In this document: one piece after another, positions 2,847 to 11,539 of the stretch
Position numbering within the stretch: the first letter of the stretch is position 1
Layout: every line of letters begins with the position of its first letter
Source: an uncultured Nitrososphaerota archaeon
GTDB taxonomy: Archaea > Asgardarchaeota > Njordarchaeia > Njordarchaeales > Njordarchaeaceae
Length of the DNA: 12,553 bases
Assembly: GCA_964518475.1 (NCBI GenBank)
Contig: CAZFGR010000037.1
Coordinates: 1-12,553, forward strand
Reading direction: 5' to 3'
Made by a program: the position numbers and the translations under genes
The notes under the pieces: generated by a model
Told to the model about the DNA's origin: nothing
What the model saw: the letters and a program-made list of their open reading frames with translations, nothing else
The model's database searches: none

Positions 2847-3992
2847 TTATTCCTCCAGGATCTCCACATTTGCTCTTGGTACGATAACTTTACCTATATC
2901 TAACTCTACTTCCACTACTCGTACCATCGACTCAGTTTCTATTTTTTGTAAATGCACCGGTAGACTCACAACAGTACCAATTTTTCCAAAGTATGGTTCA
3001 CGAATTATTCTCACTAACGTTCCTGGTTTCATGCCTTTTGATAACTCTATTTCTCTATCTGAAACTTCAGAGATGTATTTCTCATTTGGTATTATAATTT
3101 CAGGTCTCATTACTCCTGCCCTAATTTGTGTCGCCCCATTTATGGCAGCTTCATATCCATCAAATTCCTTTAATATATTGAAAACTCTTTTTGACATTGG
3201 CATTTTTCCAAATCCCTCTGTAATTATCAAAGTTGTATTTATTTTTTCATGACCTGTAATTGCAACACCTATTTCATACCCCAGGAAATCAGTCACAGTT
3301 TGACCTTTTATACCTCCAACCACTATCCCCCTAACGCCTAATTTCTCGGCCTTTTTCAAAGCGTCTAAAGTTACAAGGCTCCCTCCAACGATTATTTTTC
3401 CTTTGTGTTCATTTTTAATCATGTCTTCCTCTAATATATCATCTGGGGAATCAACTAACACACAGATTTCTCCGTGCTTTTCTCCTCCTATGCCGAAGAT
3501 TCCCTGAATGAAGGCCCCAAAACATTCTATTTCTACTCCCCTCTTTGGGATAATTTTTTTAACTTCACCTGGGATATATGCATTTATTTCTATTGGATGT
3601 GGCATCTCTCTTATAATTATTTGTCCAGTTATATCAGACACTGATTCAATTACCCCTTTAATAGGTGAACGAACATATTTTTTTATTAAGCCCCAAAATG
3701 GCGTATATTTAGCTATTATTTCATTTTCTTCCACTATATCCCCAACTTTTTTTACCATTAATTTTGGAAGCACCTCTGTTGGAACGCCCAATATCTCATA
3801 TGCCTTTATTATATATGGTTTGCCTAGAATTGATGATCTTGCTACTATCGTTTCAAAATTAACTTTATCTCCAACTTTTACAGTTACCTCCCCATCGATT
3901 GGAAGTAGTCTCGTTTTTCTAATCCTCATTCCTTTTTTAACCTTTAATCCAGGAGTATATGCATGTGTTTCTTTAGTTGTTTTCTCACTCAT
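2847..3992 (-). CDS. Conserved hypothetical protein, partner of the GlmL-like ATPase: barrel-sandwich hybrid repeats, swivelling beta/beta/alpha-like domain and C-terminal KOW motif
   Basis: Two hybrid-motif-like segments (GEVTVKVGDKV...IVAR and LMVKKVGDIVEENEIIAK...VRSPIKGVIESV), a central GKIIVGG...GVRGIVVGG...TLIITEGFG...GYEAAING region, and a C-terminal KPGTLVRIIREPYFGKIGTV KOW. ATG 3992 overlaps the upstream stop (ATGAGTGA) and has the RBS GAGGGTGA. Confidence 0.8.
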   Translation of the reverse strand: MSEKTTKETHAYTPGLKVKKGMRIRKTRLLPIDGEVTVKVGDKVNFETIVARSSILGKPYIIKAYEILGVPTEVLPKLMVKKVGDIVEENEIIAKYTPFWGLIKKYVRSPIKGVIESVSDITGQIIIREMPHPIEINAYIPGEVKKIIPKRGVEIECFGAFIQGIFGIGGEKHGEICVLVDSPDDILEEDMIKNEHKGKIIVGGSLVTLDALKKAEKLGVRGIVVGGIKGQTVTDFLGYEIGVAITGHEKINTTLIITEGFGKMPMSKRVFNILKEFDGYEAAINGATQIRAGVMRPEIIIPNEKYISEVSDREIELSKGMKPGTLVRIIREPYFGKIGTVVSLPVHLQKIETESMVRVVEVELDIGKVIVPRANVEILEE

Positions 3993-5889
3993 TAATCTCA
4001 CCCTCCCATTTTTCAATTATCTCTTTAGGATAGGCATCTAAATTACTAAACCATTTTAATAGAGTTCTCTTTCTTTCATCTTCTTCAGAAGGTAAAGTGA
4101 GAGGCCTTCCTCTTGCATCTATAAGTATACCGACGACTCCACCTTCCACAGTGGCCTCTCTAGATTTTCCAGGACCATTACCAACGTCTAATCCACCTCT
4201 TGGATCGATGAAAACTTTAGCTTTTTGTCTTTCTTCAAGAGATATTCGAATGATGTCGCCGTATTCTACCTCTTTCTCTATTGTTTCTCCATTGGGCATC
4301 TCAATCCTTACATTCAATGCTGGCTCTGTTTTATTCAATGTTCCAGCTGGAGCTATCACAGTTCCAAGTCTCACTAAGCAATCTTTATCAAATATATTCC
4401 AAGCTATTTCTGGAAATGCCTTGGATAAAACCCCTAAGTGTGGCATCATAAATACGCTATCCTGATAAATCTTTGTTACACCCTCTGGTTGGAAGGCGTC
4501 AGTTAAAATCAACATTGATTGTACTCTTCTTGGTGCATGCGATAATAATCCACCAGTTCCAGCGATTATTCCTATTTTCATCATTTCTATGTAAGTTTCC
4601 TTTAAACTGTATTCCAATAGATCTCCTATTGTTCTATCTCTTCTTAATGCACCCTTTAATCTAGTCGCTATAGTCTTATGGTGAATGAATCCTAATCTTA
4701 TGGCTTCTCTTGCAACAGCATGTTCAACTACCAGAGATTCTATTGTTTGTGGAATTGTTGTTGGTCGGATCATCTTATTTCTTAACATATCAATTAATTC
4801 CTCTTTCTCTATGTAAAATGGAACCCAGCGAATTATATTATCTATGCCAGCTTCCTTCATTACATTACATATACTGTAACTCATTCCTAGATTTGCACTT
4901 ACACTTCTCACGAATTTACCGTCAAAGACAGAGTATATATTTGTTGTAGCTCCTCCAAGACCAACCCCTAAGAGATTTTTCTTTTCCATGTATGCAATTA
5001 ATTGCATTGCCATTCCTTCTCCAGCCGGAGTGGGAAGAATATCTAGATCTGTCCAACTCATTAGTTCCGGATAACCTGGAGCATGAGACATCACATGTTC
5101 CATGAAGAGTTCGTGAATGGCATTTCTAGCTGGTTCGATGTTTTCTATCTCTAAAACTGGTCTTATATTATCGACTATTGATAATGCAAATTTATCTCCC
5201 ATTAATTTCTTTATTTCTGGACGAACATCTTTATTACCAGCATAGACTATAGGTAGTTTATAATCTTCACCTAATCTAGGTTTTGGATCTGATGCTGTGA
5301 TCAATTCAGCGATCTGCATGACCAAGGTTTTTGTACCTCCATCGGTTCCACCGGCTAACAATATCATATCTGGTCGTAGATGACGTATCTTCTCTATCTT
5401 CTCATAATCTGGAACTCCATCATCGACAGCTATGACATCCATGACGATGGCGCCGGCTCCAAGGGCGGCCCTATTGGCGCTCTCCGCCGTCATCGTCTTG
5501 ATTACTCCGGCCACCATCATCTGAAGCCCTCCACCAGCGCTGCTGGTGGAGCAGTAAAAGTCGACTCCCCGCCCCTTTGAATGAGGCTTAATAATTTTGC
5601 CATCTGGAGACAGAATCTGTAGGCCGGTTAGATCCTCTATCTCTCTTATAGCGTTTCTTACACCTAAAATTACGTTTTCATACGGCGCTTCCACAGTTGT
5701 CGGGGCTTCTCCACTTATAACGTATCTCCATTCACCTTTAATCTTCTTAAATAATCTAGCCTTGGTGGTTGTGCTCCCAACATCCGTCACTAGGATATAT
5801 TCCATCTCCTCCTCAGATTTAGGAAGCCTACGTATCGCCTTCTCATCTCTTTTCCAAATCATAGTTTTAATGGGTTTTGACAAGTTCAT
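3985..5889 (-). CDS. GlmL/MutL-like (glutamate mutase L family) ASKHA/actin-fold ATPase, long form
   Basis: Phosphate-1 DVGSTTTK, family motifs APTTVE, SSAGGGL, A-x-RAALGAGA, PDMILLAGGTDGG, YAGN, NIRPVLE, PTP, phosphate-2 GLGGATTN, RSVSANLGMSYS and adenosine motif GTGGLL. It has an extra C-terminal ~120 aa ending in GG-x-VGILIDARGRPL. The exact start is uncertain (5889 or a downstream ATG). Not the DNA-repair MutL. Confidence 0.85.
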   Translation of the reverse strand: MNLSKPIKTMIWKRDEKAIRRLPKSEEEMEYILVTDVGSTTTKARLFKKIKGEWRYVISGEAPTTVEAPYENVILGVRNAIREIEDLTGLQILSPDGKIIKPHSKGRGVDFYCSTSSAGGGLQMMVAGVIKTMTAESANRAALGAGAIVMDVIAVDDGVPDYEKIEKIRHLRPDMILLAGGTDGGTKTLVMQIAELITASDPKPRLGEDYKLPIVYAGNKDVRPEIKKLMGDKFALSIVDNIRPVLEIENIEPARNAIHELFMEHVMSHAPGYPELMSWTDLDILPTPAGEGMAMQLIAYMEKKNLLGVGLGGATTNIYSVFDGKFVRSVSANLGMSYSICNVMKEAGIDNIIRWVPFYIEKEELIDMLRNKMIRPTTIPQTIESLVVEHAVAREAIRLGFIHHKTIATRLKGALRRDRTIGDLLEYSLKETYIEMMKIGIIAGTGGLLSHAPRRVQSMLILTDAFQPEGVTKIYQDSVFMMPHLGVLSKAFPEIAWNIFDKDCLVRLGTVIAPAGTLNKTEPALNVRIEMPNGETIEKEVEYGDIIRISLEERQKAKVFIDPRGGLDVGNGPGKSREATVEGGVVGILIDARGRPLTLPSEEDERKRTLLKWFSNLDAYPKEIIEKWEGEINE

Positions 5890-5924
5890 TCACCCGAAGT
5901 CTTTCCATAATAGGAGGAAAGATT

Positions 5925-5944
5925 TGATTTATAAGTTATCCTTT
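5925..5944 (-). promoter_or_regulatory. BRE/TATA promoter for the glmL-like/KOW gene pair
   Basis: Minus strand AAAGGATAAC-TTATAAAT (TATA at 5927-5934). Confidence 0.5.
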
Positions 5945-6025
5945 TAGCTTTAGATGGAAACTTAATTCAAAGGGTGAAGGCTCTTATAAGATTTTTAAGA
6001 GACTTTAGATACTTATATTATAATA

Positions 6026-6529
6026 ATGGATATCCAACCAATTATAAAAATCCATGAAAAACACCGGGAGATAATGGTTTTCATTTATTCCATCGCAATT
6101 ATTATTTTTACATTTTTTATCGCGAGAGGGATCTCCTCTAGAAGCTATTTGAGAGCTGATCTGACATGTTACACGGTGTTGCATGGATATACGGCATATG
6201 ATCCGTTATTAGTAGGTGAAAATGTGAGTTGGATTGGTTCATGGGGACGTGAGGGAAGTATTGTTATTGAAGGTTGGATATATAATTTGGGTCCTGAGGA
6301 TGTAAATGTGACTCTTCATCTATGGATTTATGATGGAACTAAAAATGGAGGGGGAATAGGTTGCAATCAATCAGAATACTGGCAAAGTAATTATATACCG
6401 ATAGGAGTCGTACCAAAACATGGTAAAAAATGGATTCACATAGAAAAACGTTATAATCCATTTGACCCCACGACGGCTTCCTTCGATTATGAACTCATTG
6501 CAAAGCCCCTTTTTTATAGTGGCCCTTAA
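6026..6529 (+). CDS. Hypothetical membrane-anchored protein with a predicted beta-rich extracellular domain
   Basis: 167-aa ORF with one hydrophobic N-terminal helix (IMVFIYSIAIIIFTFFIA), then alternating beta-strand-like segments (SIVIEGWIYNLG, VNVTLHLWIYDG). Its stop overlaps the convergent gene stop (TTAA 6526-6529). Confidence 0.65.
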   Translation: MDIQPIIKIHEKHREIMVFIYSIAIIIFTFFIARGISSRSYLRADLTCYTVLHGYTAYDPLLVGENVSWIGSWGREGSIVIEGWIYNLGPEDVNVTLHLWIYDGTKNGGGIGCNQSEYWQSNYIPIGVVPKHGKKWIHIEKRYNPFDPTTASFDYELIAKPLFYSGP

Positions 6530-6873
6530 TTCGAGCTCCCTTTAAAGAAATTGAAAAATACTCTACGAAGGAAACCCGATTTCGATTTGGTTTTTTGTTC
6601 TTTCATTTTTTTCTCTTTATGTAGTTTTTTCAATTTCTTAATTAAAGCTTCTATATTCTCAATCTTTCCAAAGGTATCAACAAATAAATATCCATATTCA
6701 TCTAATAATGGAAGAAATGGAGCTAAATAAAAATAAGCTAATTCTCCCCCAATCATTGATAGGGGTTTTATTGTTTGAAGAATGAAGATAGCCAAATCTT
6801 CCATGTCTAAGTCTGATATTTTTTGAGCGACTTTATCTATTAATTCTCTTTCCTCATCAATTGACATCTTCAT
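6526..6873 (-). CDS. Small conserved hypothetical helical protein (KPLS-x-IG motif)
   Basis: 115-aa ORF with LIDKVAQKI...AIFILQTIKPLSMIGGELAYFYLAPFL and a basic C-tail. Preceded by a CCAAAAA-TTTTTTATTATA promoter-like element. Confidence 0.75.
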   Translation of the reverse strand: MKMSIDEERELIDKVAQKISDLDMEDLAIFILQTIKPLSMIGGELAYFYLAPFLPLLDEYGYLFVDTFGKIENIEALIKKLKKLHKEKKMKEQKTKSKSGFLRRVFFNFFKGSSN

Positions 6874-6887
6874 AAATTAAGGAGAAT

Positions 6888-6908
6888 GGTATAATAAAAA
6901 ATTTTTGG
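6888..6908 (-). promoter_or_regulatory. Oligo-T tract that could serve as terminator of the membrane operon and/or BRE/TATA for the 115-aa gene
   Basis: Minus strand CCAAAAATTTTTTTATTATAC, just downstream of stop 6917 and about 15-30 nt upstream of ATG 6873. Confidence 0.35.
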
Positions 6909-6916
6909 ATCTCTTT

Positions 6917-7549
6917 TTATAGACCTAGCCATAGCTTGATCAATCGATATAGCGAGCTTACCGCTAATCCTGATAGTTGCATTATGGCACTCCCTACTGA
7001 AAGACCGAAGTATATTAGGAAGATATATTTTCCTATGGTTCTTAGATATTCTGCTGGTTTGCTCGCTGGACTACGTACAAATACCGTGAAAAGTAGGTAG
7101 AATACTGCGATAGGGGTAAATATCACTTTTATTAGGTAGCCTATCTGATCGGTTAATGGTGGTGTGAATATTAGTGCAGCTTCAGATATCACCGCCTTAA
7201 CGTTTCCAATGATGTCTGTCATCATTAGAGCTCTCATAGATATACCGGTGCCAACCCCGATCATAACAGCTATTGGGAAGGAAGCTACCCAAGCATATTT
7301 TCTCCATGCTACAAATAGCGACATTATTCCCAGTATTAGTGGGATGATTAGTATTGGTTTCTGGCCTGTAAATAATGGTAGGAAACGGCTTTTTAATGTG
7401 AAATATCCAGTTACAACTGAATGCCCTATTACAGTGCCTGCATAAGTGTATACTCCTATTCTGAATAATGGATTGTCACCATATAGTAGTGAATAGGAAC
7501 AGATTGTCAGAAGCGCTGATAACCAGATCCAGGGATCTGTCGAGATCAT
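6917..7549 (-). CDS. Conserved hypothetical integral membrane protein (~5-6 TM; W-x-x-ALLT...S-x-LYGDNPLFR motif)
   Basis: 210 aa, strongly hydrophobic throughout; ATGA overlap with the upstream gene at 7546-7549. Confidence 0.85.
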   Translation of the reverse strand: MISTDPWIWLSALLTICSYSLLYGDNPLFRIGVYTYAGTVIGHSVVTGYFTLKSRFLPLFTGQKPILIIPLILGIMSLFVAWRKYAWVASFPIAVMIGVGTGISMRALMMTDIIGNVKAVISEAALIFTPPLTDQIGYLIKVIFTPIAVFYLLFTVFVRSPASKPAEYLRTIGKYIFLIYFGLSVGSAIMQLSGLAVSSLYRLIKLWLGL

Positions 7550-8376
7550 TCCTCTTCCTCCCCCAACCTAGTTAACATCGTGATGTTTCCTAATATTACG
7601 AAGATGACGAAGGCGATGACTAGGAAACTGTAGGCGTTCATCGCTGCGTATCCTAATCCCTTTATTCCTACCAATTTTTCGTATTGAGCGCCTCCAAGGA
7701 ATCCAAGGGTCATGAAGACCTTGCCTGGATACATCGCCATGTATGGGGCATAGGAGGCATAGGCTGCAGCCTGGGCGAAGTAAACGCTGGGAATTCCCCT
7801 CTCTGAAGTTACGTATCTCACTATCATTGGGAAGGCCCAGTGGATGCAGATCCATAGCGAGATGTCTTTATAGCTATGGAGATCGCGCATGAGGGGGAGT
7901 TCATCGAGAGGGGTTCCATATACATCGGTGGCTACCGCGGAATGCACATCCGTTAGGAAGGCGACGAGGGCAGCATCCATCCCCGGCATGTAGGGAAGCT
8001 GCACATAGTCTCTACCATATTTCCAGGGTCCACCATACTTCTCATCAACTCTCGCCATGTCGATACAGTATTTATGCATTTGCACCGCCTCGACGGATAG
8101 TGGAACGAAGACCACCCTTAGATGGTTACGTGCCATCTGCTTTAGGCAGGCTATCATGGAGGCTGATGACTCAAGGTCGAAGGCGAATACATAGGCGCCT
8201 CCCACTGCTACTATGCTTCCTTCAGGTAGATTTTCTATCATGTTATAAACATCTAATGTTGCTTTACTCATAGGAATCGGTATTTCGATGGGGTGTATTA
8301 TCGCTACTGTAAATATCGCTAATAAAATAGCCCATATATATTGAGACTTTAATTCAGGTATCCTCATCGCCATCAC
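7546..8376 (-). CDS. Conserved hypothetical membrane protein with a central soluble alpha/beta domain
   Basis: 276 aa; N- and C-terminal TM helices flank ~200 soluble residues (IENLPEGSIV, KYGRDYVQLPY, GGAQYEKLVG). ATGA overlaps on both sides. Confidence 0.85.
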   Translation of the reverse strand: MMAMRIPELKSQYIWAILLAIFTVAIIHPIEIPIPMSKATLDVYNMIENLPEGSIVAVGGAYVFAFDLESSASMIACLKQMARNHLRVVFVPLSVEAVQMHKYCIDMARVDEKYGGPWKYGRDYVQLPYMPGMDAALVAFLTDVHSAVATDVYGTPLDELPLMRDLHSYKDISLWICIHWAFPMIVRYVTSERGIPSVYFAQAAAYASYAPYMAMYPGKVFMTLGFLGGAQYEKLVGIKGLGYAAMNAYSFLVIAFVIFVILGNITMLTRLGEEEE

Positions 8377-9014
8377 ACCTCCGTAGCTCTTAGAGCACCT
8401 TTCTCCAATCCTAATAATATCCGTATCCCTAGAACTACCCCTCCTACTCCTCCTGTGATCAGTAGTGCTCTACTACCTGCTGATGCAGGATAGTTTAAGA
8501 ACCAGAATACTATCTTATCGGCCGCTGGAAAAGTAGCGGATACTATTGGAGCATTGCATATCGCTATTAGTAGGGTACAGCAGGCGAATATTGCAGTCCT
8601 TAAAGTCCTCATCCTGAATAGTCGATAACATGCTGAGATCATGAAGAATACCAGTTGGCCAAGGATTGCTATATGTAACGTGATTTTTGTACATAGATAT
8701 GCCTTCTGATAAATGTCTGAATATAGCCCAACTTTCAGGCCGAAGATTATCCATACAACTATCAGTATCGCTGCATATAGGTGATATTGCCAATACTTTT
8801 CTCTATTCATAATGCTGCGAATATATCTTGAGTATACTGATAGCAATCCTACGAACAGAGTGAATGTGGCTATATTCATGTTCCATATCTGAAGCTCATT
8901 TGCTATTACATCTGCCTCTGGAGATACAAAGTACCAGCTAATTAGTACTGATAACATTCCGATCAATATTAGTATTCTTGTGAGGTATAACCTTATATAT
9001 ACTACGGCGGACAT
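8373..9014 (-). CDS. Conserved hypothetical integral membrane protein (~5-6 TM)
   Basis: 213 aa, hydrophobic, C-terminal AGSRALLITGGVGGVVLGIRILLGLE. The start lies 1 nt after the upstream stop. Confidence 0.85.
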   Translation of the reverse strand: MSAVVYIRLYLTRILILIGMLSVLISWYFVSPEADVIANELQIWNMNIATFTLFVGLLSVYSRYIRSIMNREKYWQYHLYAAILIVVWIIFGLKVGLYSDIYQKAYLCTKITLHIAILGQLVFFMISACYRLFRMRTLRTAIFACCTLLIAICNAPIVSATFPAADKIVFWFLNYPASAGSRALLITGGVGGVVLGIRILLGLEKGALRATEV

Positions 9015-9015
9015 T

Positions 9016-9810
9016 TTACATCCCCAATAGATTTAATATCAGGTTTGACCCCGCTGCAGATAATATTGCTCCAACGATCATTAAGACTAGCAATATTAGT
9101 TTTATCCAATCTTGTGCAGCTAAGGTTGCGATAGCATATTTATCTCTTGTAATGGAAGCCGCAGCGGCGTAGAGCTCTTCTCCTACTAGGAAATAGTCAC
9201 AGAAAACTGTCATCATATCCATGCTTCCGAGGGTTCCTCCAATTTGGATTGCTCCCACCCTCGCTCCTGTTTCGCCATCGACGATCACGTCGAATAGGAA
9301 ATAGCCGATAAAACAGATCATACCCGGTTTATGTGCTAGGATCTGCCCCGCGGCCCCCACGGCATAGGCGAATTGATCGCCTCCGAACCATTCAACATAT
9401 TTACCTGGAGCATAGAGTTCTGGTTTACCTGCAGCGGTGTAAGCGCTGCCTATAACTGCCTCGGCGGCGGTGATTACCGCTGAGTTGCTGGCGCTTGTGA
9501 TCGTTGGAACCCCTATCTCCGCTCCCCTTTGCGCCAGCTCTCCTAATACAGTTAATCCAGCGATTGTTTGTGGATTACCTAGATCACTTATTCCAGGTAA
9601 CACCATCATGGGTCGACCCATCTCCGCGCATCTTCCTACTCCTTCATACATCGCCTCTAATGCCTCAATTGGTCTGATCTCCCAGACCTTACCCTTTTTT
9701 GCTAGAGATGATGCTATATAGGTTAATATAGCTACCAGAATCAACAGGAATAGTTGAAATGCTCTTCCCTCTTTTATTATCATACCAGCCATGACAAAGT
9801 TAGTTGACAT
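9016..9810 (-). CDS. DUF6754-like membrane protein
   Basis: TM-soluble-TM layout with IRPI-x-AL...VGRCAEMGRP, QFAYA, ETG-x-RVGAIQIGGT, CDYFLVGEELYAA and LAAQD motifs, recalled as DUF6754. The start is probably ATG 9810 (AGGGG RBS; a TATA at 9855-9862 lies inside the longer ORF-track call that starts at 9882). Confidence 0.75.
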   Translation of the reverse strand: MSTNFVMAGMIIKEGRAFQLFLLILVAILTYIASSLAKKGKVWEIRPIEALEAMYEGVGRCAEMGRPMMVLPGISDLGNPQTIAGLTVLGELAQRGAEIGVPTITSASNSAVITAAEAVIGSAYTAAGKPELYAPGKYVEWFGGDQFAYAVGAAGQILAHKPGMICFIGYFLFDVIVDGETGARVGAIQIGGTLGSMDMMTVFCDYFLVGEELYAAAASITRDKYAIATLAAQDWIKLILLVLMIVGAILSAAGSNLILNLLGM

Positions 9811-9854
9811 TTTAATTCCCCTTTTCCTAGTAATAACCTCTTTTGGTAATTCAT

Positions 9855-9870
9855 ATTTATAGTTTATTCC
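9855..9870 (-). promoter_or_regulatory. BRE/TATA promoter of the four-gene membrane operon
   Basis: Minus strand GGAATAAA-CTATAAAT, about 45 nt upstream of ATG 9810. Confidence 0.45.
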
Positions 9871-9939
9871 ATTTTCCATCAATTATATGTAAAACAAACG
9901 GAAACCTAAAATAAATTAAAATAAAATTTGTTTAATGAA

Positions 9940-10168: not shown

Positions 10169-11539
10169 ATGGTGGACGTTCTTTTGATTTCCCCTCCGTT
10201 TAAGGGCCTTTTAAGGGAGCCTATTGGTCTTTATTATCTCGCAGGGGTGCTCGAGGAGGAGGATATTTCTGTTAAAATAATGGATTTTAATGTGGAACAA
10301 CCGAGCAGATCATATTTTCACAATAAGATTAGGAAACTTGATCCCAAAATTGTTGGTGTAACTTCATATACATTTAATTTTTCAGCTGCAAAGAAGATAG
10401 TTAAAGAGATCAAGAAAGTCAAACGAGATTGCATTATTGTTATGGGTGGGGTTCATGTTTCTTCACTTCCAAAAGAGACTTTCGAAAGCGTTCACGAATT
10501 AGATTTCATCGTCATCGGGGAGGGAGAATTTACTTTTTTGGAATTATGTAGAAGTATAATTAATTGTGAAGATGATGCATTTAATATTGAAGGGGTAGCA
10601 TATAAAGATAATGAGAGAGTGATAATTAATCCACCAAGAAGATTAATTAAAAATTTAGATGATTTACCTATGCCGAACAGAGAACTACTTCCCTTCAACA
10701 AATATCCAGTCGCTTCAGTTCAGACTTCTAGAGGTTGCCCTTATAATTGTATATTTTGTAACATTAACAAATTTTATGGAAATAGAATAAGATTTAGAGA
10801 TCCCATTGAGGTTGTAAAAGAATGTGAATATATTGTTAAAAGATATAATAAGGATAAGATTTTCTTTTTTGGAGATGCCTTTACCTTTAAATCAGATTGG
10901 GTTGAAACATTTTGCGATGAGATTGTTCGTCGCAAACTTAAATTTAAGTGGGGTTGTGAAACAAGAGTTGACAATGTAAATTATAAACTTCTTAAGAAGA
11001 TGAGGAGAGCAGGATGTATTGAAATACAATATGGCATAGAATATGGAGATGAAGAAATTCTTAAGATATTGGGTAAAAATATATCTTTAGAAGATGTTCA
11101 TAATGCAGTTAGATGGGCTAAAAAGACGAATATGTTTGTTGGGGGATTTGTTATATTTAATGTCCCATATGAAAATGAGGAAACTATGGAGAAAACATTT
11201 AGATTACTTCAAAGAGTTCCTGTTGACGCTATAGAAATAAATCTGTTAACTCCTTATCCAGGTACAATCCTTTGGAAAAATCCTGAGATATTCAACATGA
11301 GGATCATTAATTATGATTTTGATTATTACACAACTAAGAAATATGTTATGGAGAATTTGAATTTCCCAAGAGAAAAATTTGTTCCAGCATTTAAGAGACT
11401 TCTCAAAAGATTGAATCTGATACCTATGCCGGGCCATGAGCCAGAGATTTTCAATTTTTTGAAGAGAGATATCAAAATAAAAGTATGGAAAGAGGAGGAA
11501 AGTAGAATTAAACACTTTTTAAAGATTTTGAAAGGATGA
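10169..11539 (+). CDS. B12-binding-domain radical SAM protein (class B methyltransferase-like)
   Basis: N-terminal cobalamin-binding region (PIGLYYLA, VGVT, MGGVH, VIGEGE), SRGCPYNCIFC CxxxCxxC, ETRVD, GIE-x-G and TPYPGT. RBS-like GTGGGG before the ATG. Confidence 0.92.
   Translation: MVDVLLISPPFKGLLREPIGLYYLAGVLEEEDISVKIMDFNVEQPSRSYFHNKIRKLDPKIVGVTSYTFNFSAAKKIVKEIKKVKRDCIIVMGGVHVSSLPKETFESVHELDFIVIGEGEFTFLELCRSIINCEDDAFNIEGVAYKDNERVIINPPRRLIKNLDDLPMPNRELLPFNKYPVASVQTSRGCPYNCIFCNINKFYGNRIRFRDPIEVVKECEYIVKRYNKDKIFFFGDAFTFKSDWVETFCDEIVRRKLKFKWGCETRVDNVNYKLLKKMRRAGCIEIQYGIEYGDEEILKILGKNISLEDVHNAVRWAKKTNMFVGGFVIFNVPYENEETMEKTFRLLQRVPVDAIEINLLTPYPGTILWKNPEIFNMRIINYDFDYYTTKKYVMENLNFPREKFVPAFKRLLKRLNLIPMPGHEPEIFNFLKRDIKIKVWKEEESRIKHFLKILKG

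Follow-up and report, generated by a model that had tools for sequence, protein, structure and literature searches.

The window analysed here, a stretch of 12,553 nucleotides taken at its full length, contains the seven co-oriented minus-strand genes that a first-pass annotation had placed in it, with their coordinates unchanged. We denote the four membrane genes a, b, c and d, the gene for the small protein s, that for the ATPase G and that for its partner P. Gene a (9016–9882) encodes a 288-residue DUF6754 protein (PF20539, E 3.7e-59), b (8373–9014) a polytopic membrane protein of 213 residues, c (7546–8376) a membrane protein with a Rossmann-like α/β domain and d (6917–7549) a second polytopic protein, of 210 residues; b and d are without a family, and c belongs to no Pfam or NCBIfam family. 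The same holds for the 115-residue product of s (6526–6873). G (3985–5889) is a long, 634-residue MutL/GlmL-family protein of the ASKHA (actin) fold (Pfam MutL PF13941, E 1.6e-115), while P (2847–3992) combines a barrel-sandwich hybrid, a swivelling β/β/α and a KOW-like domain in 381 residues, counted from an ATG at 3992 that other assemblies also call as the start. As the first-pass annotation had held, no ABC, TRAP, PTS or respiratory family matches any of the seven proteins.

The sequence bears out most of the proposed gene junctions: a and b are separated by a single nucleotide (TAA, one base, ATG), c and d share an ATGA overlap, and G and P overlap by 8 nt. The b/c junction, for which ATGA had also been claimed, instead reads GTGATG, giving c either a GTG start with a 4-nt overlap or an ATG start with a 1-nt overlap. 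The two blocks described for the locus do not adjoin each other: a plus-strand open reading frame encoding 167 residues (6026–6529), convergent with s, sits between s and G; it is kept in close relatives only (48% identity in one of them, L005). A near-identical assembly of the stretch was found in three other metagenomes, whose contigs span the G–P join and cover the sequence from the 5' part of G to most of a. Six genomes of the same genus contain no counterpart of the contig, so that its host is uncertain. Genes for M20, DUF917, hydantoinase and racemase proteins flank the locus. A B12-binding radical SAM gene adjoins a in the window, and is absent at distant loci.

The ATPase, its partner and the small protein

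The product of G matches the Pfam MutL profile from end to end of the profile (386.9 bits, positions 1–450 of 450, above the gathering score), sharing with MutL/GlmL an ASKHA-fold domain of ~470 residues to which a conserved C-terminal extension of ~130 residues is added. Among 51 full-length homologues the conservation of its nucleotide-binding motifs is 95% or higher and, judged by these residues, the protein looks nucleotide-competent. No solved structure related to G was found. The family to which it is closest comprises the accessory protein of B12-dependent glutamate (methylaspartate) mutase and Or-4, a protein of ornithine degradation (PF13941; NF040745, NF040744, TIGR01319), which it resembles in the ASKHA domain and the conserved nucleotide-binding motifs. 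However, G reaches none of the three NCBIfam cut-offs for GlmL, Or-4 and glmL_fam (210.9 bits against 475 for NF040745 and 149.2 against 204.05 for TIGR01319; 207 against 600 for the Or-4 model NF040744), and differs from these proteins in its C-terminal extension, its obligate partner P and its co-occurrence with membrane proteins. Glutamate mutase E (PF06368) was found in none of five carrier genomes, the window's own included, and methylmalonyl-CoA mutase in one of the five; Pfam and NCBIfam searches detected no mutase gene within the window. These results support the earlier suggestion that G is a GlmL-like orphan as regards B12 mutases.

The P family comprises 2374 clusters at 50% identity, and the AlphaFold model of P has a pLDDT of 93. 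Residues 56–130 match the N-terminus of NqrA (Z 7.5), residues 159–303 the His-domain of PTS Enzyme I (Z 9.8, rmsd 2.6 over 107 residues) and rifampin phosphotransferase (Z 9.1), and the KOW-like domain matches the KOW domain of NusG (Z 8.1); a second P paralogue present in Bacillota is recognised by Pfam RnfC_N (E 4.5e-8). NqrA and RnfC are soluble proteins mounted on membrane complexes, as P would be. Across 71 aligned P sequences no His or Cys position is invariant or close to it; the His of the ITGHE motif seen in the window is not conserved. Both G and P are extremely conserved, with 50–70% identity across domains, and natural G–P fusion proteins of 995–1003 residues exist.

The small protein begins with an acidic helix, continues with a hydrophobic hairpin that is conserved and contains an invariant Pro, and ends in a tail rich in Lys and Glu. 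A family member is present in 35 of 80 related loci, usually directly upstream of G and even where no a-b-c-d block is nearby. The small protein is therefore to be grouped with the ATPase pair and not with the membrane block.

The four-subunit membrane unit

The membrane genes follow each other in a fixed order, a, b, c and d. The DUF6754 protein a (200.4 bits against a cut-off of 27, above the gathering score) consists of a transmembrane helix, a conserved cytoplasmic α/β domain and a second transmembrane helix, with a basic AKxGK stretch after the first. The other three subunits are less well conserved than a, which has ~33% identity in its alignment and contains no invariant His or Cys there. 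In its bacterial homologues a signal peptide and an Fn3-like domain precede the first transmembrane helix, which places the N-terminus outside and the α/β domain inside. Gene b lies directly after a in every a-b-c-d block mapped in the analysis, and its product has a nearly invariant F..SA..R..R motif in the middle. Neither b nor d has a relative in Pfam, NCBIfam or the PDB, and 36 and 32 of their respective homologues gave no Pfam match even at E ≤ 1; the Atlas matches of d are confined to unnamed clusters from the same phyla.

Subunit c is built from a transmembrane helix, a Rossmann-like α/β domain, a long transmembrane helix and a basic cytoplasmic tail. The bias in its Lys and Arg residues puts both termini inside, and on the basis of this charge bias and of fusions the α/β domain is predicted to face outward; some Chloroflexota homologues bear an N-terminal Zn-ribbon. 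Structural comparison of the AlphaFold model (pLDDT 90) returned only generic Rossmann-like folds (best Z 8.8), and Foldseek no match at E ≤ 1e-3. The model is similar in shape to those of DUF6754 proteins (TM 0.65 over 235 residues), and judging from this likeness the cytoplasmic domain of a would be Rossmann-like as well. None of the subunits could be matched to a known family of transporters or to a solved structure. The topology, with the domain of a inside and that of c outside, is consistent with a transporter.

Distribution and copy number of the two gene sets

The locus holds one copy of a widespread and hitherto unstudied system that occurs in both archaea and bacteria. In 80 loci of ~15 phyla the placement of the a-b-c-d block relative to s-G-P varies (upstream, downstream or divergent), its internal order being always kept, and the gene set is retained with different flanks in distant archaeal contigs. 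Carriers span archaea, monoderm bacteria and diderm bacteria and include the Chloroflexota and Cloacimonadota, the taxa named in the first-pass annotation. Among 151 Planctomycetota genomes, P and DUF6754 occur together in 39 of the 43 carriers (P only in 1, DUF6754 only in 3, neither in 108; Fisher p 2e-31). For the Thermoproteota (201 genomes) the corresponding figure is three of four carriers, with no genome having P only, one a DUF6754 fragment only and 197 neither. The association persists when the genes are dispersed: all ten genomes in which P stands apart from the other genes encode DUF6754 elsewhere, a long MutL is also present in the five of these ten that were searched, and in Poribacteria and WOR-3 the genes are scattered over the chromosome.

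The two modules differ in copy number. Genomes contain from 1 to 9 a-b-c-d blocks, and single or few G–P pairs where these were counted; three genomes of 1.4–1.9 Mb hold 8, 7 and 9 complete blocks, with at most two G–P pairs at the loci examined. Zixibacteria have two or three blocks in tandem behind a single s-G-P, and each position in the tandem forms its own orthologous group across genomes. The window's own genome has a second a-b-c-d block on contig C53 (DUF6754 match of 135.8 bits), with an s paralogue beside it and no ATPase of its own, and only one G and one P. Three findings support the proposal that all seven products are parts of a single functional system: a synteny kept, with rearrangements, from one domain to another, a strong co-occurrence even of dispersed genes, and the G–P fusions. 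The idea of a fixed seven-gene machine gives way to one cytoplasmic set and many membrane units. This way of working recalls the ECF-type ABC importers (EcfAA'T plus many S components), in which one cytoplasmic energiser per genome likewise serves several diverged, substrate-specific membrane units at scattered loci. The likeness is one of logic and not of homology: none of the seven proteins matches ABC_tran (PF00005) or a related family, EcfT and S-component homology is absent, the energiser here is of the actin fold, and four subunits make up every membrane unit.

The genes beside the membrane units offer a clue to the substrate. Of 59 genes lying no more than two positions from 15 blocks, ~17 encode peptidases or amidohydrolases, against ~6 of 72 further away (p 0.003), a comparison drawn from two genomes with partial family lists and distal controls that are peptidase-rich too. 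This enrichment beside paralogous units lends weight to the amino-acid, peptide or hydantoin class proposed in the first pass. The substrate is probably a peptide or amino-acid-derived amide, and for the copy in the window perhaps a hydantoin-type compound. The binding protein of Opp/Dpp systems (SBP_bac_5) had no match in three archaeal carriers.

A proposed importer and its alternatives

The reading we favour, at a probability of roughly 0.45, is that of an ATP-driven modular solute importer in which a shared s-G-P set energises exchangeable a-b-c-d units. It draws on the conserved synteny, the co-occurrence of P and DUF6754, the G–P fusions, the ratio of one set to many units, the membrane topology, the motifs of G, the neighbouring genes and the absence of SBP_bac_5. 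The a-b-c-d module exists in many diverged paralogous versions, and the cytoplasmic s-G-P set, usually encoded once per genome, would be common to all of them. Substrate would be met by the poorly conserved, outward-facing α/β domain of c and pass along a membrane path formed by the polytopic b and d, while the well-conserved cytoplasmic domain of a would provide a common docking site for the ATPase set, possibly aided by the hairpin protein s. G would bind and hydrolyse ATP, and the swivel domain of P would pass the movement on to the membrane unit. We infer the physical contact between the modules, the hydrolysis of ATP and the direction of transport, as well as the substrate. Several points count against an importer: no ASKHA protein is known as a driver of transport, no subunit resembles a known transporter fold or family, the GlmL proteins related to G are regarded as helpers of a chaperone- or reactivase-like kind (a role that suggests maintenance and not transport), and scattered genes are commoner for housekeeping functions than for catabolic transporters.

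The last two points bear on a rather unlikely alternative, namely that a-b-c-d is a membrane enzyme or ion-translocating complex and G–P its ATP-dependent assembly, activation or repair factor, as proposed for GlmL, EutA and DdrA. G is indeed a member of the MutL/GlmL family, whose characterised members serve client enzymes, the genes are scattered in Poribacteria and WOR-3, and the conservation of G and P across domains is what would be expected of a core machine. P, moreover, joins a swivel domain to a barrel-sandwich domain like that of NqrA and RnfC. The DdrA and EutA reactivases combine an ASKHA ATPase with a swivelling domain acting on a B12 enzyme client; the top 50 structural matches of P include none of their chains. 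However, P and a show no apparent cofactor motif, given that neither has an invariant His or Cys, and P differs from its counterparts in Rnf and Na+-NQR in having no flavin or Fe-S motifs and no conserved Cys. The membrane proteins match neither the Rnf/Nqr families in Pfam nor decarboxylase membrane subunits, and up to nine diverged units per small genome, beside different hydrolases, fit substrate-specific uptake better.

Export or surface insertion of peptides, envelope components or surface proteins, as opposed to nutrient import, appears improbable. Two elements could deal with envelope material, the outward domain of c and the Fn3-like domain that bacterial a has in the periplasm, but the archaea, monoderms and diderms that carry the system have unrelated envelopes, and the neighbouring genes mostly encode cytoplasm-type hydrolases of small amides and peptides.

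The group translocator that the first-pass annotation had offered beside an importer fares worse, and we regard it as very unlikely. G would here be a kinase, as many ASKHA proteins are, phosphorylating the incoming substrate or a carrier, and the swivel and barrel-sandwich domains of P would form a mobile arm comparable to PTS Enzyme I and EIIA. Two observations speak for it: the best structural matches of P residues 159–303 are phospho-histidine domains, P sharing its middle domain with the swivelling domain of Enzyme I and other PEP-utilising enzymes, and the cytoplasmic domain of a may, from its likeness to c, be Rossmann-like. Yet Z scores of 8–10 are no more than moderate, and P is matched equally well by RraA and aconitase X, neither of which carries phosphate. 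The phospho-acceptor His of the PTS proteins is absent from P, whose swivel domain contains no conserved His (making a PTS-like phospho-relay unlikely), a has no invariant His or Cys to offer, a PEP-binding domain and HPr are missing, and the Pfam searches with homologues of b and d gave no EIIC or EIID match even at E ≤ 1.

Finally, it is scarcely tenable that G–P lies next to the membrane genes without any relation to them, G being an ordinary GlmL whose B12 mutase is encoded elsewhere in the genome. In its favour, the two blocks of the window form separate transcription units, divided by a gene on the opposite strand, and a B12-binding radical SAM gene adjoins a. This explanation is already contradicted by the co-occurrence and synteny statistics, the rarity of mutases in the five carriers searched, the distance of G from the GlmL and Or-4 cut-offs and the lack of the radical SAM neighbour at distant loci.

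Returning to the modular importer, we tentatively suggest, at a little under even odds, that it constitutes a new class of primary active transporter, with four-subunit units containing two similar subunits in opposite orientations and one shared ASKHA ATPase with a swivel-domain partner. If this is true, it would add a third mode of energising uptake to those of ABC transporters and the PTS, used for peptide or amide nutrients by hundreds of uncultured archaeal and bacterial species.

Gene content and provenance of the locus

The window corresponds to the complete contig C37 (12,553 bp), part of an archaeal genome bin of 2.33 Mb. On its minus strand, seven genes lie at 2847–9882. Four of these encode membrane proteins (a, 9016–9882; b, 8373–9014; c, 7546–8376; and d, 6917–7549), and are followed by s (6526–6873), which encodes a 115-residue small protein, G (3985–5889), a 634-residue ASKHA protein of the MutL/GlmL family (Pfam MutL, E = 1.6e-115), and its 381-residue partner P, which starts with an ATG at 3992 and ends at 2847. 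MutL and the DUF6754 match of a (E = 3.7e-59) are the only Pfam assignments among the seven products, with P giving a sub-threshold KOW match. The gene junctions are those described in the first-pass annotation, with the exception of b-to-c, which reads GTGATG instead of ATGA. That description also lacked a 167-aa open reading frame on the plus strand (6026–6529), located between s and G, which overlaps the stop of s by 4 nt and encodes an N-terminal transmembrane helix. Since this frame divides s from G, the two blocks are separate transcription units in the window. It matches no family and is conserved only in close relatives, at 48% identity in the nearest of them; it is probably an insertion particular to this lineage and not a component of the system. 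Contigs assembled from three other metagenomes match the stretch almost identically and span the gene boundaries. In one metatranscriptome, two short contigs match parts of d and b exactly, at a depth of only 2, which is too low to indicate transcription.

The RNA polymerase A subunit encoded on the largest contig of the bin is 63% identical to its Njordarchaeia counterparts and only 41–42% identical to those of Bathyarchaeia. P has its nearest named relatives in Bathyarchaeia, and the a protein of C53, another contig of the same bin, groups with Bathyarchaeota. No P was found in 300 genomes from the phylum of the bin, no DUF6754 in 13 from its order, and no DNA resembling C37 in six genomes of the same genus. 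In tetranucleotide correlation with the genome, C37 and C53 rank within the lowest four of 68 contigs. On the basis of these Bathyarchaeia-like genes, the absence from relatives and the outlying composition, both contigs may therefore have been mis-binned or acquired horizontally.

The nearest known protein family to G is GlmL/MutL, whose members are encoded with B12 mutases, but G fails the defining tests of GlmL: it scores 211 bits against the NCBIfam GlmL model (cut-off 475), 207 against Or-4 (cut-off 600) and 149 against the glmL family model (cut-off 204). At least 95% of the 51 homologues compared keep the phosphate and adenosine motifs of the ASKHA fold, a C-terminal extension of ~130 residues is conserved, and a profile search against PDB sequences returned no known relative. 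G does not track B12 mutases, in keeping with its description as an orphan in the first-pass annotation: glutamate mutase E was found in none of five carrier genomes and methylmalonyl-CoA mutase in one of the five. The "Glutamate mutase L" label attached to these genes is misleading, an annotation that the present analysis corrects.

The structure model of P (pLDDT 93) has no whole-chain counterpart among PDB structures, and a profile search against PDB sequences produced KOW matches only. Taken in parts, residues 56–130 resemble barrel-sandwich hybrids such as that of NqrA (Z 7.5), residues 159–303 the swivelling domains of PTS Enzyme I (Z 9.8), rifampin phosphotransferase (Z 9.1) and RraA (Z 8.8), and residues 316–381 KOW domains (Z 8.1). 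Homologues of P fall into at least 8000 clusters when grouped at 90% identity, and into 2374 when grouped at 50%. In Bacillota, a second, diverged G'–P' pair lies directly upstream of s-G-P (locus L024, 4248–7506, as well as L025 and L073), where P' is ~450 residues long and matches Pfam RnfC_N (E = 4.5e-8). The small protein s starts with an acidic helix, followed by a hydrophobic hairpin that is conserved and contains an invariant proline, and ends in a charged tail.

Synteny and co-occurrence of the seven families

To follow the genes across genomes, iterated HMMs for all seven proteins were mapped on 80 loci. G adjoins P at 50 of them, and the two also occur as natural fusions of 995–1003 residues; s lies directly upstream of G at many loci, including some that have no membrane genes nearby, and so belongs with the ATPase pair. 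The internal order of the a-b-c-d block is constant, with the block placed upstream, downstream or divergently relative to s-G-P, and the flanks of distant loci are wholly different. When one genome per species was scanned, relatives turned up in at least 565 genomes, among them archaeal carriers in Bathyarchaeia, Methanomethylicia, Culexarchaeia and Sulfolobales-labelled MAGs, and bacterial carriers that include Bacillota, Zixibacteria, WOR-3, Poribacteria, Eisenbacteria, Stahlbacteria, Cloacimonadota, Brocadia and Ignavibacteriales.

Where the genes are dispersed, the remaining components are found elsewhere in the genome. P stands alone amid unrelated genes in WOR-3 and Poribacteria, with a long MutL elsewhere in 5/5 genomes and DUF6754 elsewhere in 5/5, and in five of five further genomes with an s-G-P locus devoid of membrane genes DUF6754 is again encoded at another site. 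In an unbiased sample of 151 Planctomycetota, 39 genomes carry both P and DUF6754, one P only, three DUF6754 only and 108 neither, so that the families are present in about a quarter of the sample; among 201 Thermoproteota, sampled likewise, the corresponding figures are three, none, one (a fragment at a contig end) and 197. The associated Fisher p values (2e-31 and 3e-6, respectively) are overstated, since related genomes are not independent. P and DUF6754 therefore do not have independent profiles (both are present in 39 of 43 planctomycete carriers and three of four in Thermoproteota), and the conserved synteny, the co-occurrence and the G-P fusions make it very probable that the seven proteins constitute one functional system, as the first-pass annotation had proposed.

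Both in the window (10169–11539, plus strand) and in close relatives, a gene for a B12-binding radical SAM protein lies divergently from a. On C53, a second a-b-c-d block is followed by another radical SAM gene, one that lacks the B12 domain (1610–2674 of the C53 locus, minus strand). We considered such a protein as a core part and rejected it: a gene of this kind accompanies the window, the locus of the closest relative and the C53 copy, and is absent from the distant locus L006 and most others, so the association with a-b-c-d is probably local.

One cytoplasmic set and many membrane units

Four genomes of 1.4–1.9 Mb encode eight, seven, nine and seven copies of DUF6754, and in the two of these that we inspected every copy lies within a complete a-b-c-d block. 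P is present in a single copy in the one multi-DUF6754 genome searched genome-wide, and one or two G-P pairs were seen at the loci examined in the others. In Zixibacteria, a single s-G-P is followed by two or three tandem a-b-c-d blocks. Blocks at a given tandem position group together as orthologues from genome to genome; the tandem copies are therefore old, differentiated subfamilies. The bin itself contains one MutL gene, and its second a-b-c-d block, on C53, is 27–30% identical to that of the window and has an s paralogue nearby, with no G or P on the contig. G and P are conserved far better than the membrane subunits (60–74% versus 25–38% identity to the distant locus L006). One Bathyarchaeota chromosome has three copies each of P and DUF6754. 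The second block on C53 is adjoined by an S58 (DmpA-type) aminopeptidase gene and flanked by two 134-residue membrane reading frames with weak DUF3792 matches (593–997 and 5761–6165, both plus strand).

None of the four membrane subunits had a known relative when its profile was searched against the full set of PDB sequences. The model of c (pLDDT 90) comprises a transmembrane helix, a Rossmann-like domain and a long transmembrane helix; Foldseek returned nothing for it at E ≤ 1e-3, and structural comparison (VIA) gave generic Rossmann-like matches only (Z ≤ 8.8). Its shape is similar to that of DUF6754 models (TM 0.65 over 235 residues), and a and c therefore appear, as far as the models go, to be structural counterparts. 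This likeness is confined to predicted shapes: profile–profile comparison found no sequence homology between the two (probability 1.5%). In bacterial a proteins, the N-terminus consists of a signal peptide plus an Fn3-like domain, and the first transmembrane helix is followed by a basic stretch, features that would place the conserved domain in the cytoplasm. The basic N-terminal motif and C-terminal tail of c, together with an N-terminal Zn-ribbon on some homologues, would put its domain outside, and thus the two domains appear to be oppositely oriented. A 903-residue form of a (locus L060, 11145–13856, plus strand) has ~640 extra residues after the signal peptide, which lack a Pfam match and may represent a large periplasmic extension. 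Both b and d are polytopic proteins that match nothing known. Even at lenient thresholds, Pfam assigned no family consistently to the 36 homologues of b and 32 of d that were scanned; weak matches to TMD0_ABC in six of the 36 (best E = 0.001) were regarded as noise. Complex prediction of b, c and d against a scored 0.79, and a control in which an unrelated protein replaced c scored 0.85, so the prediction speaks neither for binding nor against it.

Candidate functions

The genes next to the membrane blocks offer clues to a substrate. In one Methanomethylicia and one Bacillota genome, peptidases and amidohydrolases account for ~17 of the 59 genes that lie no more than two positions from any of 15 a-b-c-d blocks, versus ~6 of 72 at three or more positions (p = 0.003; the counts are approximate, being taken from partial family lists), which agrees with the catabolic setting noted initially. 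The families comprise Amidohydro, DUF885, S9, TldD, M20, M14, S10, M24, M81 and GGT. The window has a hydantoin-type catabolic island of its own (1–2778; 11215–17685 in a 46-kb version of the contig), with an M20 peptidase and, in the longer version, an upstream hydantoinase A gene and two Asp/Glu-type racemases; its DUF917 genes (up to four, S-methyl-thiohydantoin-desulfurase-like) fall far below equivalog cut-offs. The Opp/Dpp binding-protein family, which 11 of 14 control genomes encode, had no match in three archaeal carriers (from Bathyarchaeia, Methanomethylicia and Culexarchaeia).

A modular uptake system is the best-supported reading, and we give an ATP-driven importer a probability of roughly 45%. 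In such a machine, the shared cytoplasmic ATPase set would dock onto the conserved inner domain of a, b and d would make the path across the membrane, and the diverged membrane units would provide specificity through the outward domain of c. In its logic of a shared energizer serving many specificity units, the closest analogy is the ECF transporter, to which the system has no homology. A membrane enzyme or ion pump formed by a-b-c-d, with G-P as its chaperone or reactivase, appears unlikely, and a role in export or envelope work rather more so. Group translocation, which the swivelling domain of PTS Enzyme I might call to mind, is improbable, as the 71 P sequences contain no invariant His or Cys, evidence against both a phospho-histidine relay and metal clusters. 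Finally, chance neighbours, or an ordinary GlmL, can be set aside almost entirely: the family resemblance of G stops short of the GlmL cut-offs, and glutamate mutase E was found in none of the five carrier genomes searched.

Searches of the literature for DUF6754, PF13941/GlmL and ASKHA with transporter found no paper describing the system, and the initial view that the seven products are without a characterised counterpart holds across the PDB relatives, families and papers searched. These results would give context to seven uncharacterised families, including the highly conserved ATPase pair to which databases attach the name of glutamate mutase. Should the system prove to be a transporter, it could account for substrate uptake by peptide-fermenting archaea and fill a gap in metabolic models, and, if true, it would represent a new energy-coupling principle in membrane transport.
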